From the NCBI RefSeq assembly GCF_054482595.1, contig NZ_CM137008.1: 64,000 nt of DNA, one strand, 5' to 3'. Positions 40,612 to 47,217 of this stretch are shown here, piece after piece. The notes under the pieces are model-generated. The model was not told where the DNA came from. It was given only the letters and a program-made list of their open reading frames with translations, and ran no database searches. The first letter of the stretch is position 1. Every line of letters begins with the position of its first letter. The position numbers and the translations under genes are program-made.

Positions 40612-40643
40612 CTCCGAACTATTAACGCGTTCCTTGGGCGATA

Positions 40644-40691
40644 GGGGACTTAATACGATTGTAATGGTTAATCGTGTTTCCCCTTTTTTAG
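40644..40691 (+). terminator. Rho-independent terminator after galF
   Basis: Hairpin ggggac...acgatt...aatcgt...tcccc followed by TTTTTTT. Confidence 0.6.
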
Positions 40692-40847
40692 ATTGATTGG
40701 TAGTTGGAATGGAAATTTTATATTGAGCAAAATATGGGGAAAATATATTTTAGTTAGTTATTAAGAGTACAATCTGTTGAATACTTGTTTCGCTAAATAA
40801 TTGAGTTTTAGGTTTTTATTAAAATTTATAACTATTAATGAGCATAG

Positions 40848-40884
40848 TGCACTGGTAGCTATAGAGCCAGGGGCGGTAGCTTGT
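40848..40884 (+). promoter_or_regulatory. JUMPStart/ops element upstream of the O-antigen genes
   Basis: gcactggtagctatagagccaggggcggtagcttg; ops-like GGCGGTAGCTTG at 40872-40883. Confidence 0.8.
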
Positions 40885-40960
40885 TTAGTGTTAGGTATTC
40901 TGGTTTTAAAAGCATAAAACTCTCCAGTATTTTCATTGCATACATAATATTATTCATTAA

Positions 40961-44131: not shown

Positions 44132-45228
44132 TCATAGAGAATAATAAAGTGAGTTCACATAGCTATTTATGGGTTCTTTTCCAATCCTTTATATTTTATT
44201 ACAAATTCATGCTCCAAAGTTGGGACGGTGATGAACAGATTGTAAATGTAATATCTATCATCTTAACCTTACTTCTTTTATGTGGTACGATTAGTGCTTT
44301 TATAATCTCAAATATTAAAGAGAAATGTATATTTTTAATAATTTTCATTTTTGTTGCCTTGAACATAATTATAGCAGATAACAAATCTGTCTTTTGGATG
44401 GTGACGGCGTTCACTTTCTTGATACTCTTTTCAACGTTAACCATTAAAAATAGAATTAGGATATTGGTTTTCTCTTTTATAATTGCATGGTGTTTCTTTT
44501 TACCACTACAAATATTTTTCTCCAATTCCTATACATATATTGATGATCGATATTTAAGATATACATTTGGATTTTTAAATCCTAATGGATTAGGGATGTT
44601 TCTATTACTGTTGCAGACACTTTTATATTATTGGATATGGACTTCAATAAAAGCAACAATAATCGTGAAGCAAATGATTACAATAATTTTGGGTGGATCT
44701 ATCATATGCATAATATTTTTAAGTGAATCAAGAACATATATATTACTATCCTTTTTATTACTGATTTTAACTGTAATATACGGATTTAAGAAATTTAAAT
44801 TCTCATCACGACTTCTATTTATATATTTACTGTTTGTTATGCTTTTACAATGGCTTTCTGTAAAAGGTTTTGAGAATTACCTCATATTTCAAGATATGAA
44901 CGCATATATGAGTGGGCGAGTCTGGTTTTCCTATAATTTACTAAGCCAAATGGGAGAACCGAAATTCTTTATTGGTAGTGATATTTCATTGTATCAACCG
45001 ATAGACTTCTTCTTTATATCACTATTATATAATAATGGGATACTGGCTTCGTTAATATTGTTATACTGTAACTATATCTTTCTAAAAAAGTTAGACAACT
45101 CTACGAAATATGAAAGTATATTAGCTTTTATATTTATTACAGTAAGTTTCACAGAAGCTGTATATAATATTCCTCTGTTGAATTTCTTCTTTTTGCTGTT
45201 ATATAAAAAGGAATTGAGGTTTTCATGA
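44128..45228 (+). CDS. wzy: O-antigen polymerase (Wzy)
   Basis: 366-aa highly hydrophobic multi-TM ORF in an O-antigen cluster with no recognisable catalytic motif; start codon uncertain. Confidence 0.7.
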   Translation: MIIENNKVSSHSYLWVLFQSFIFYYKFMLQSWDGDEQIVNVISIILTLLLLCGTISAFIISNIKEKCIFLIIFIFVALNIIIADNKSVFWMVTAFTFLILFSTLTIKNRIRILVFSFIIAWCFFLPLQIFFSNSYTYIDDRYLRYTFGFLNPNGLGMFLLLLQTLLYYWIWTSIKATIIVKQMITIILGGSIICIIFLSESRTYILLSFLLLILTVIYGFKKFKFSSRLLFIYLLFVMLLQWLSVKGFENYLIFQDMNAYMSGRVWFSYNLLSQMGEPKFFIGSDISLYQPIDFFFISLLYNNGILASLILLYCNYIFLKKLDNSTKYESILAFIFITVSFTEAVYNIPLLNFFFLLLYKKELRFS

Positions 45229-46244
45229 AAGTTGATGCAGTAATCTTATGGGTAGATGGTAATGATCCAAAATGGCAGGAAGAATACAATAAATATTGTA
45301 AGCCGGCCTCTCGAATTGAGAATGGTGTACAAAGATATAGAGATTGGGATACACTACGATATGTAATTCGTGGAATAGAATATAACCTTCCTTGGATTGA
45401 CAAAATACATTTTGTGACATGTGGTCAAAAGCCAAGTTGGATGGTTGGATATCATCCAAAACTCAATTTTGTACATCATAACGATATTTTTGAGAATGAT
45501 ACATTTTTACCCACATTTAATTCAAGTGCAATAGAGTTAAATCTGTCAAGGATAAAGGGATTAAGTGAGAGGTTTATATATTTTAATGATGATATGCTTG
45601 TGCTTAAAAACACTCCTCTTCAGAGGTTTTTTGTAAATGATTTACCGGTGGATTTTTTAATTGAAGCTTTCCCACGGCGTGGGTTATTGTATGAAAAAAT
45701 ACGTTCCAACTCAACTTGGGTTTCAATGATAAATAATTGCACTTCGCTCATAAATAGAGTGTATCACAAGAATAAATATATACAGGATAATCGTAATTTA
45801 TATTATAACATGAACTATGGACGACATGTCATTGCTAATGTACTGGCGTCCCCTTTTAAGCAGTTTTTGGCTTTTAAACACTATCATCATCCTCAAGCAT
45901 ATCTTAAAAAGACATTACAATCCGTTGAGCGTGAGTTCCCAGTGGAGTTTAACTTAACATGCAAATCTAGATTCCGAGAACATGATAATATCTCACAGGC
46001 GTTGTTTAGATATTACCAATTGGTAACTGGTAGTTTTTATCCGTGCTATTATAATGATCATGCCTGTGTTAATGTAGTAAATAAAAAATCTGCAAGCCAG
46101 TGTATTGAAGCTCTTCATCAAAAACGATTTGTGTGTATAAATGATGAGATTAATGACGACTTAGATGATAGTTCAATTTTAATAAATGATATAATTAAAG
46201 AGTTGGATTTGATTCTTCCAAATAAATCAAGTTTTGAGATCTAA
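45225..46244 (+). CDS. Stealth-family hexose-1-phosphate transferase (glycosyl-phosphotransferase)
   Basis: 339-aa ORF; Stealth CR1-like DAVILWVDGNDPKW, CR2-like TLRYVIRGIEYNLPWIDKIHFVT, CR3-like YFNDDM. Confidence 0.75.
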   Translation: MKVDAVILWVDGNDPKWQEEYNKYCKPASRIENGVQRYRDWDTLRYVIRGIEYNLPWIDKIHFVTCGQKPSWMVGYHPKLNFVHHNDIFENDTFLPTFNSSAIELNLSRIKGLSERFIYFNDDMLVLKNTPLQRFFVNDLPVDFLIEAFPRRGLLYEKIRSNSTWVSMINNCTSLINRVYHKNKYIQDNRNLYYNMNYGRHVIANVLASPFKQFLAFKHYHHPQAYLKKTLQSVEREFPVEFNLTCKSRFREHDNISQALFRYYQLVTGSFYPCYYNDHACVNVVNKKSASQCIEALHQKRFVCINDEINDDLDDSSILINDIIKELDLILPNKSSFEI

Positions 46245-46250
46245 ATTAAT

Positions 46251-47069
46251 ATGAATTCGTTTGATGAGTTTAATGTGCTACTATCTCTTTATAAAAATGA
46301 GAGCCCCGATAATCTGGATGCGTGTTTTCAAAGCATAAGCACTCAATCTTTGAAAAGATTTAAAATAATACTTGTCATAGATGGTCCTATTTCTTCTGAG
46401 TTAAATGAGGTTGTCGGAAAGTGGAAGTCACTATTACCTATTAAAATTATCAATCTCGAACGTAATGTTGGCTTAGGTAATGCTTTAAATATAGGTTTGA
46501 AATATTGCAGTTGTGATTATGTGTTTCGTATGGATACAGATGATATTTGTCATCCGGATAGGTTTTCCATACAATTTAGTTATCTGAGGAAACACCCCGA
46601 TATTGATTTGCTTGGTGGACAGATTGTAGAATTCCATGAATGCATAGAGGAGCCTAACGGTATGCGGTTAGTACCTTCTAAATATGAGGAAATTCTTCAG
46701 TATTGTAAACTTAAAAACCCATTTAATCATATGACAGTTGTGTTTAAAAGAGAGAGTGTACTTAAGGTCGGTGGATATAAACATCATTTATATATGGAGG
46801 ATTATAATCTTTGGCTTCGTATGATATCAATTGGTTGCAAAGTGGAAAATTTAGATGATGTGATTGTTTTTGCCCGAACAGACGTGAATTCATTAATGAG
46901 ACGTAGAGGGTGGCAATATGTTAAAAGTGAATGGAAATTAGCACTGTTAAAAATAAAGTTAAGAATAAATAATCCTATTGTTTCTTTATCTGTTTTTATC
47001 CTCCGATCTATACCTCGATTATTACCTATTATGTTGATTCGTAGAATTTATGCCCACAACCGCAAGTGA
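46251..47069 (+). CDS. Glycosyltransferase family 2
   Basis: 272-aa ORF; FNVLLSLYKNE ... VIDGP ... MDTDD motifs. Confidence 0.8.
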   Translation: MNSFDEFNVLLSLYKNESPDNLDACFQSISTQSLKRFKIILVIDGPISSELNEVVGKWKSLLPIKIINLERNVGLGNALNIGLKYCSCDYVFRMDTDDICHPDRFSIQFSYLRKHPDIDLLGGQIVEFHECIEEPNGMRLVPSKYEEILQYCKLKNPFNHMTVVFKRESVLKVGGYKHHLYMEDYNLWLRMISIGCKVENLDDVIVFARTDVNSLMRRRGWQYVKSEWKLALLKIKLRINNPIVSLSVFILRSIPRLLPIMLIRRIYAHNRK

Positions 47070-47217
47070 ATTTTTTTAAGTCATATTGAGTAATTGAGTA
47101 ATAGTTTTCCTATGTAATCAAAATTAACTATCAGTTTTATTATTAGTTGGGTAATATCTCTCTATATCTCAACCAGTGCAGTCATTGCATGGTGAACACC
47201 CCTGACAGGAGTAAACA

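Follow-up and report, generated by a model that had tools for sequence, protein, structure and literature searches.

The window analysed here is a stretch of 64,000 nucleotides from contig NZ_CM137008.1 (assembly GCF_054482595.1), and the interval of interest, 40612-47217, is bounded exactly by the end of galF (40611) and the start of gnd (47218). Six ORFs, all on the plus strand, are packed into 40961-47069, with successive junctions of -11, -1, -4, -4 and +6 bases, and they coincide exactly, with the same boundaries, with the RefSeq CDSs of a genome that is identical over the cluster. Checks of the ORFs, together with NCBIfam and Pfam, found neither rml, fcl or man nor any other gene for nucleotide-sugar synthesis between galF and gnd. 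The gnu gene is located outside the interval covered by the initial annotation, yet is part of the pathway. The coordinates of the features are collected in the table below.

Features of the O-antigen locus and its surroundings, in window coordinates
Feature	Position	Strand	Basis
gnu, GlcNAc-PP-undecaprenol 4-epimerase	38480..39475	+	Pfam Epimerase 1e-30; RefSeq counterpart
galF, conserved left boundary of O-antigen locus	39718..40611	+	NCBIfam TIGR01105, 681 bits (cut-off 659)
JUMPstart element with ops	40845..40883	+	Rfam RF01707, 51.1 bits
wzx, O-unit flippase, 415 aa	40961..42208	+	Pfam Polysacc_synt 2.3e-41
Family-2 glycosyltransferase A, 333 aa	42198..43199	+	Pfam Glycos_transf_2
Family-2 glycosyltransferase B, 310 aa	43199..44131	+	Pfam Glycos_transf_2
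wzy, O-antigen polymerase, 366 aa	44128..45228	+	Modelled WaaL/Wzy fold
Stealth-family hexose-1-phosphate transferase (predicted), 339 aa	45225..46244	+	Pfam Stealth CR1-CR4
Family-2 glycosyltransferase C, 272 aa	46251..47069	+	Pfam Glycos_transf_2
gnd, conserved right boundary of locus	47218..48624	+	NCBIfam TIGR00873, 770 bits
wzzB, chain-length regulator of Wzy-dependent O antigens	50896..51876	+	ORF; homologue's RefSeq annotation
Imported block (gnu, galF, O160 cassette, gnd, IS200 remnant, ugd), 12.5 kb	38429..50938	.	Difference maps

In terms of membrane components, the wzx product is a flippase of the polysaccharide-biosynthesis (MOP) type with nine hydrophobic segments. The Pfam search returned no match for the wzy product, a polytopic membrane protein for which a confident structure model shows the WaaL/Wzy fold. 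Only two relatives of this polymerase were found by word-indexed protein search, and an exhaustive profile search was needed for more. The NCBIfam search returned no family for the polymerase or for the Stealth protein, and its matches to wzx and the glycosyltransferases were all sub-threshold. The PADLOC defence models gave zero matches for wzx, wzy, the Stealth gene and the IS200 ORF.

All three glycosyltransferase ORFs contain a GT-A domain of Pfam family PF00535 (Glycos_transf_2) at E <= 0.001 (best 5e-30), which places them in family 2. The NCBIfam glycosyltransferase matches of transferases A and B were all under equivalog cut-offs, as was the top match of transferase C, an EpsE-like family (9e-25), under its own cut-off. 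The remaining enzyme carries the four conserved regions of the Stealth family in order: CR1 (residues 1-24, 8e-11), CR2 (residues 37-138, 1e-38), CR3 (residues 221-262, 4e-8) and a weak CR4 (residues 299-338, E = 0.008). Its relatives by sequence in the PDB include CpsY (8j2n, 1e-30) and human GlcNAc-1-phosphotransferase (2e-27).

The wzzB gene, whose start codon was read from the sequence, is followed directly by hisIE-hisG. Since the his operon occupies this position, no ABC-transporter cluster is present; the locus thus combines the absence of wzm/wzt with a nearby wzz. Assignment as a capsule or exopolysaccharide locus was rejected: the export genes wza-wzb-wzc, which alignment with an annotated genome identified in the window, are part of a separate colanic acid cluster upstream. 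By comparison, the nearest Providencia Stealth homologue, unlike that of O160, is located in a capsule-type wzi/wza/wzb/wzc locus. The initial annotation had described a Wzx/Wzy-dependent O-antigen cluster of six tightly packed, overlapping genes in the order wzx, GT2, GT2, wzy, Stealth, GT2, devoid of nucleotide-sugar pathway genes between galF and gnd. The Polysacc_synt domain, the WaaL/Wzy fold and the lack of an ABC transporter bear out the pathway type; NCBIfam and Pfam agree with the gene order, the junctions with the packing, and one pathway gene, gnu, lies just outside the interval.

[quoted passage not shown] Across all 6,606 bases the cluster is 100% identical to those of XH989 and XH987, and it matches 14 complete E. 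coli genomes over its full length at 99.7-100% identity. Among 5,426 complete E. coli genomes, 15 matched over at least 75% of the cluster length, and all 15 carry the O160 annotation; in the rest, K-12 included, no match was longer than about 100 bases, consistent with the earlier reading that the locus is not of the K-12 O16 type. In the genome identical over the cluster, RefSeq names wzx an 'O160 family O-antigen flippase', and the protein cluster of Wzy is named 'O160 family O-antigen polymerase'; the O160 label is therefore one of sequence identity (100% for both wzx and wzy) to genomes named through RefSeq sequence rules. The galF-gnd location, the published gene content and the position of gnu upstream of galF likewise correspond to O160. 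The segment is almost certainly the intact Wzx/Wzy-dependent O-antigen cluster of E. coli serogroup O160, in the standard galF-gnd locus, and the strain is assigned to genoserogroup O160. The serogroup name was the only item missing from the initial annotation.

The structure and genetics of O160 have been reported by Perepelov et al. (2015; Carbohydr Res 417:89, PMID 26451883), as cited in PMC7685785, where the polymer is listed as a 'phosphate-containing O-polysaccharide'. It holds one GlcNAc and one GalNAc (PMC7685785), and is among six E. coli O antigens in which two sugars are joined via a phosphodiester (PMC9912281). GalNAc is the first sugar of the unit, as deduced from the presence of gnu just upstream of galF (PMC7685785). 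In O160 genomes near-identical to the window at this point, the counterpart of gnu is a CDS of the same length and position (WP_000999466.1), annotated as the GlcNAc-PP-undecaprenol 4-epimerase. Enzymes of the Stealth family transfer hexose-1-phosphate and assemble polymers with phosphodiester linkages (PMC5974469), and the Stealth protein of the cluster would be the maker of the sugar-1-phosphate-sugar bridge. The initial annotation had anticipated a unit of common sugars plus a phosphate-linked residue, which agrees with these published features of O160; a glycosyl-phosphate O antigen was correctly predicted from gene content alone, starting from raw sequence.

Alongside the observed gene content, domains and fold, a pathway may be proposed in which we infer the order of transfer, the donor sugars and the assignment of enzymes to bonds. 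WecA, encoded elsewhere, would place GlcNAc-1-P on undecaprenyl phosphate, and Gnu would epimerize the product to GalNAc-PP-Und. The three inverting family-2 glycosyltransferases and the single Stealth hexose-1-phosphate transferase would then extend the unit at the cytoplasmic face, a transferase count predicted to fit the O160 repeat unit. Should every transferase act a single time, the unit would comprise five sugars, with GalNAc at its reducing end, three glycosidic bonds of inverted (beta) configuration formed by the GT2 enzymes, and one hexose-1-phosphate bridge retaining the alpha configuration of the donor. The donors would be housekeeping UDP-sugars, so that the cluster would need no sugar-synthesis genes. 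The Stealth enzyme would transfer a sugar-1-phosphate with release of UMP, thereby producing the phosphodiester bridge characteristic of O160. Wzx would flip the finished unit, Wzy would polymerize it in the periplasm, WzzB would set the chain length, and WaaL would ligate the chain to lipid A-core.

The base composition of the cluster differs sharply from that of its surroundings. The GC content is 30.5% in 40612-47217 versus 51.4% in the rest of the window, and across the other parts of the 64 kb, 442 windows of 6.6 kb have a mean of 52.3 +/- 1.6% and a minimum of 48.2%, which puts the cluster about 13.6 SD lower. At third codon positions the GC content ranges from 21 to 29% in the six genes, versus 43-56% in wcaM, gnu, galF, gnd, ugd and wzzB. 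The composition changes sharply at both edges, where galF stops and gnd begins. Compositionally, the low-GC cassette is foreign.

Difference maps revealed a larger unit around the cassette. Relative to the O160 genome QA-1986 83, the block at 38429-50938 shows a single difference, as it does relative to XH989 up to 50811, while the flanks outside the block are 3-5% different from both. The wzzB gene is almost wholly outside the block and is 14-17% divergent from the wzzB of other O160 genomes. Since the window remains identical to YZLc23-1, a non-O160 genome, as far as 38604, the left crossover is placed between 38429 and 38604. The upstream flank is matched at about 100% by seven complete genomes, none of which has the O160 cluster and which carry other O-antigen clusters instead; for the downstream flank, none of the O160 genomes in the set of 5,426 gives a match above 97.1%. 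A near-identical block set in divergent flanks therefore argues for recombinational import of the whole region, and indicates that the cassette probably reached this strain inside a 12.5-kb import extending from gnu to ugd. Judging from these alignments, the unit exchanged between E. coli lineages by homologous recombination is the entire block of 12.5 kb, which extends beyond the AT-rich part. The AT-richness relative to the flanks and the horizontal acquisition proposed in the initial annotation are thus upheld by the windowed GC, the foreign composition and the imported block.

The low GC content might instead have arisen through mutational bias or local selection in a locus of long residence, rather than come from a low-GC donor. 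Evidence relevant to this explanation comes from a Buttiauxella-like genome (GCA_965119215.1, its genus being given solely by the clustering of its WcaM with that of B. izardii). In this genome the same six-gene order occurs at the same position (wcaM-gnu-galF ... gnd), at about 30% GC and preceded by a JUMPstart-like sequence that contains ops; unlike O160, rmlB- and rmlA-like genes follow gnd. The syntenic cassette is equally AT-rich (28-33% GC) despite only 47-60% identity between the proteins, which implies that the composition has been stable through long divergence, with no drift toward that of the host, as a long-resident locus would have it. Against this stand the sharp boundaries, the third-position GC, which is far from that of the adjacent genes in both hosts, and the demonstrable movement of the region as a block within E. 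coli. Moreover, between the two genera the cassette proteins have diverged much further than the products of gnu, galF and gnd on either side, which are 83-92% identical; this fits independent histories. Long residence is consequently an unlikely source of the composition, and foreign origin is preferred. The 12.5-kb import and the trans-genus cassette together represent textbook behaviour of O-antigen loci.

The JUMPstart element, which scores 51.1 bits against an Rfam gathering score of 35 (E = 2e-9), contains the ops sequence GGCGGTAG at 40872-40879 and precedes the start codon of wzx by 82 bases. This element is the predicted RfaH-dependent antitermination signal of the O160 operon, which would be transcribed by read-through from JUMPstart/ops with RfaH. 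A scan of 39400-49600 for sigma-70 promoters and terminators was no richer than shuffles, and no promoter is therefore claimed. With the promoter signal at chance level, the cluster could be silent or non-functional, a genetic relic in a rough strain; inactivation does occur in serogroup O160, since IS elements are inserted in the cluster of 3 of the 15 O160-cluster genomes. Here, however, the six ORFs are full length, with the boundaries of the RefSeq CDSs of a 100% identical genome, and JUMPstart/ops, gnu and wzzB are all intact, which renders a relic very improbable and favours an intact cluster.

The least probable alternative, to which we give hardly any credence, is a different or new serogroup resembling O160, or a variant of O160 in which modification genes elsewhere, or a co-expressed second cluster, change the finished antigen. 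The serotype was deduced here from sequence rather than serology, phage- or plasmid-borne modification genes elsewhere could alter it, and O9/O160 ambiguities occur in a published genoserotyping study (PMC9501560). A second cluster is present in some O160-cluster genomes, and the manC located after wzzB in XH989 is identical to that heading the O9-family manC/rfbK/wzm cluster of another strain. Against this, the whole cassette is 100% identical to genomes typed as O160 by wzx and wzy, and the his operon directly after wzzB means that the window has no O9-type cluster at that site. Assignment to O160 is thus retained. With its cluster in just 15 of the 5,426 complete genomes, O160 is a rare serogroup; it has been met in surveys of cattle-associated Shiga-toxin-producing E. 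coli and linked to beef-associated outbreaks (PMC7403468).

A cassette related to that of O160 was also observed on small IS-flanked plasmids among the Enterobacteriaceae, where identity to the O160 counterparts is 56% for the Stealth protein, 30% for a Wzy-like protein and 46% for one glycosyltransferase. Three E. coli genomes were found to have it, plasmid-borne in each; every one of them has a chromosomal galF-gnd cluster that is degraded or interrupted by IS elements, and two are O160. The O160 wzy-Stealth pair and the homologue of the third glycosyltransferase might be members of a phosphoglycan cassette family that is mobile, with plasmids supplying a replacement O antigen. This proposal is speculative and quite unlikely to hold; if true, it would amount to plasmid-borne serotype conversion. 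The plasmid cassettes concern related loci, and the cluster of the window is itself an intact, ordinary O160 cluster.

The O160 cluster described here is already known, and its identification, though correct, is an ordinary finding that leaves current understanding unchanged. The locus, the six genes and their order are all shared with the E. coli O160 cluster of Perepelov et al. (2015); the cassette does not differ from known O160 clusters, whereas the chromosomal background does. Stealth-annotated genes also occur in a few other E. coli chromosomes, with only about 68% DNA identity to that of O160 over about 210 bases, and the closest Stealth relative found outside the O160 group is 60% identical and not from E. 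coli. The family members CpsY and GNPTAB have CR1-CR4 and sequence similarity in common with the O160 protein, to which the same hexose-1-phosphate transfer chemistry (PMC5974469) may be ascribed. The O160 enzyme, a single-domain protein, would add a single sugar-1-phosphate within the lipid-linked repeat unit, which Wzy would then polymerize, and is probably not a processive polymerase of a homopolymer capsule. The remaining E. coli O antigens known for a sugar-phosphate-sugar bridge, namely O84, O152, O172, O173 and O181 (PMC9912281), are like O160 of the Wzx/Wzy type with a glycosyl phosphate in the repeat unit.

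The segment between galF and gnd corresponds in sequence to the already known E. coli O160 O-antigen gene cluster. When its 6,606 bases (40612-47217) were used as a megablast query, 15 of 5,426 complete E. coli genomes proved to carry the cluster; 14 of these matched from end to end with 99.7-100% identity, XH989 and XH987 being 100% identical. RefSeq names both wzx and wzy as "O160 family" in all 15, and the ORF boundaries in the window are those of the RefSeq coding sequences. The other eight matches were pieces of ∼100 bases, all inside one glycosyltransferase gene; thus, no K-12 genome among those searched matched the cluster. 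The initial annotation, which had read the segment as a Wzx/Wzy-dependent O-antigen cluster of a type other than K-12 O16, was therefore correct: the cluster is real, and it is that of E. coli O160.

Features of the O160 region and related elements (window positions unless another sequence is named)
Feature	Position	Strand	Remarks
ops copy	3751-3758	-	GGCGGTAG
ops copy	14630-14637	+	GGCGGTAG; just upstream of colanic acid wza
ops copy	15217-15224	+	GGCGGTAG; just upstream of colanic acid wza
gnu	38480-39475		331-aa epimerase-fold gene upstream of galF
galF	39718-40611	+	NCBIfam galF, 681 bits; left boundary
JUMPstart	40845-40883		Rfam RF01707, 51.1 bits (gathering score 35)
ops in JUMPstart	40872-40879		GGCGGTAG
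ORF1 (wzx)	40961-42208	+
ops copy	42104-42111		GGCGGTAG; within wzx
ORF2 (GT2)	42198-43199	+
ORF3 (GT2)	43199-44131	+
ORF4 (wzy)	44128-45228	+
ORF5 (Stealth)	45225-46244	+
ORF6 (GT2; GT-C)	46251-47069	+
gnd	47218-48624		NCBIfam, 770 bits; right boundary
IS200-type remnant	48689-49280		Between gnd and ugd
wzzB	50896-51876
ops copy	51042-51049		GGCGGTAG; within wzzB
Plasmid cassette	3600-10200		pCUWW10B, NZ_CP182147.1; also NZ_CP196745.1 and NZ_CP180599.1

The gene arrangement and composition agree with the initial description of six close-packed, overlapping genes that are far more AT-rich than their flanks. Neighbouring ORFs overlap by 11, 1, 4 and 4 bases, and ORF5 and ORF6 are separated by 6 bases. 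The GC content is 30.5% in 40612-47217 versus 51.4% in the remaining window, ∼13.6 SD below that of 6.6-kb windows outside the cluster (mean 52.3 ± 1.6%, minimum 48.2%). The drop spans the interval from the galF stop to the gnd start, and the composition is plainly distinct from that of the flanks, with third-position GC of 21-29% in the six cluster genes versus 43-56% in neighbouring genes.

The functions of the ORFs were checked separately from the RefSeq O160 names. ORF1 matched Pfam Polysacc_synt (2.3e-41) and has nine hydrophobic segments, and is therefore assigned as the Wzx flippase. ORF2, ORF3 and ORF6 all matched Pfam Glycos_transf_2; their linkage specificity is not assignable, since all of their NCBIfam matches fell well under the equivalog cut-offs. 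ORF5 carries the Stealth regions CR1 (8e-11), CR2 (1e-38), CR3 (4e-8) and a weak CR4 (0.008), and its sequence relatives of solved structure include the CpsY phosphotransferase 8j2n (1e-30) and human GlcNAc-1-phosphotransferase (2e-27). Enzymes of the Stealth family are described as transferring hexose-1-phosphate and so building polymers with phosphodiester bridges (PMC5974469). ORF4 matched neither Pfam nor NCBIfam; a word-indexed protein search returned only two relatives, whereas a profile search run exhaustively over 1.84 billion proteins gave 47 representatives. Of 35 aligned family members, 6 matched Wzy_C weakly.

The 349-base spacer between galF and wzx contains a JUMPstart element with its ops, the signal through which RfaH brings about antitermination in long polysaccharide operons. 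Scanning for consensus promoters gave no gain over shuffles, and no promoter is claimed. The ops octamer occurs six times in the window versus 1.2 expected, a count reached in none of 100 shuffles; wza itself lies at ∼15407, as judged by alignment to the non-O160 genome YZLc23-1. In near-identical O160 genomes, the equivalent of gnu is annotated by RefSeq as GlcNAc-PP-undecaprenol 4-epimerase. On the 3' side, the cluster is followed by gnd, an IS200 remnant, ugd, wzzB and then directly by the his operon, and no ABC-transporter O-antigen cluster was found in the window. The remnant comprises Rfam STnc490 (IS200 5'-end RNA; 48689-48812, 144 bits) and a tnpA frame (∼48822-49280) broken by an in-frame stop, corresponding to an IS200/IS605 tnpA pseudogene annotated by RefSeq in O160 genomes; a G+C-rich hairpin (49362-49380) lies 3' of it.

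The O160 region came into this background by homologous recombination, a classic route of O-antigen switching, as a block of ∼12.5 kb. The window differs from the O160 genome QA-1986 83 at one position over 38429-50938, and from XH989, likewise O160, at one position up to 50811, whereas the outer flanks diverge from both by ∼4.5% upstream and ∼3% downstream (the best match of the downstream flank to an O160 genome was 97.1%). Conversely, genomes with other O-antigen clusters share the upstream flank (30000-38400) at 100% identity, among them YZLc23-1 with an rfbBDAC-type cluster and PS3Tanimalfeces2 with a degraded O112ac-type cluster. It is this near-identical block within divergent flanks, together with the other clusters on the same upstream background, that indicates import as a block. 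Identity with YZLc23-1 extends to 38604, which puts the left crossover where wcaM meets gnu, between 38429 and 38604. The right crossover lies at or before 50938, and the wzzB divergence beside the block (14-17% relative to the wzzB alleles of O160 genomes whose sequence is otherwise near-identical up to ∼50811-50938) places this junction at the start of wzzB. The strain combines the O160 cluster with a different allele of the chain-length regulator wzzB. The IS200 remnant, being inside the block common to O160 genomes, moves with the cluster. This combination of background and O160 cluster was absent from the 5,426 complete genomes.

The O160 O-polysaccharide is classed as phosphate-containing (Perepelov et al. 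2015, cited in PMC7685785); it is reported to contain one GlcNAc and one GalNAc, the latter deduced to be the first sugar from the position of gnu just upstream of galF (PMC7685785). For E. coli, a glycan NMR review lists a phosphodiester joining two repeat-unit monosaccharides in only six serogroups, O160, O84, O152, O172, O173 and O181 (PMC9912281). The gene content, domains, folds, leader element and O160 identity are observed; the steps of synthesis follow from what is known of Wzx/Wzy systems in general. WecA (encoded elsewhere) would start the unit as GlcNAc-PP-Und, which Gnu would convert to GalNAc-PP-Und; the three GT2 enzymes, which are inverting, would then lengthen it together with the Stealth enzyme by another four residues drawn from housekeeping UDP-sugars, the Stealth enzyme forming a sugar-1-phosphate bridge with release of UMP. 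Wzx would flip the unit and Wzy polymerise it, with WzzB setting modal length and WaaL performing ligation. Provided that every transferase is used a single time, the predicted unit comprises five sugars, linked by three beta-glycosidic bonds and a single phosphodiester.

Besides the galF-gnd Wzx/Wzy cluster, certain genomes have a manC/rfbK/wzm cluster of the O9 family, located in the interval from wzzB to his; it is absent from the window, where his adjoins wzzB. XH989 (18409 onward) has an intact O160 cluster and a manC identical to the one at the head of the O9-family cluster in PS3Tanimalfeces2 (38910 onward). Ambiguity between O9 and O160 in genoserotyping has been noted (PMC9501560).

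IS elements (IS3, ISApl1 and IS1X2) lie inside the cluster in 3 of the 15 O160-cluster genomes (FXCREC035, FXCREC004 and CUWW10), so that loss of O160 expression could recur in this serogroup. A related 6.5-kb cassette (∼31% GC), flanked by IS26 and IS1, was found on small plasmids in 3 of the 5,426 E. coli genomes and on the chromosome in none; in all three carriers, two of them O160, the chromosomal galF-gnd cluster is IS-disrupted or degraded. It also occurs on a single plasmid each from Enterobacter cloacae and Citrobacter (93% coverage, 99.7% identity). The cassette encodes a GT2, a second glycosyltransferase, a flippase-like protein, a 370-aa Wzy-like protein, a Stealth protein and another glycosyltransferase; compared with O160, identities are 56% for Stealth, 46% for the second glycosyltransferase versus GT-C and 30% for the 370-aa protein versus Wzy.

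The nearest Stealth relative outside the O160 group (60% identical) is encoded in GCA_965119215.1, whose WcaM falls into one 90%-identity cluster with that of Buttiauxella izardii; the next named relatives, at ∼50% identity, are from Providencia, where the gene resides in a capsule-type locus. The Buttiauxella-like locus (4719-10850) has the order seen in the window, i.e., wcaM, gnu, galF, an ops-bearing JUMPstart-like sequence, wzx, two GT2 genes, a wzy-like gene, Stealth, GT2 and gnd, and its cassette is similarly AT-rich (28-33% GC), with rmlB- and rmlA-like genes between gnd and wzz. The two loci share 47-60% identity in their cassette proteins, compared with 83-92% for gnu, galF and gnd. 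The common layout, the low GC and this gap in identity argue for an old, lastingly AT-rich cross-genus module with a history distinct from that of its flanks. The comparison supports the horizontal acquisition initially proposed from composition, although it names no donor.
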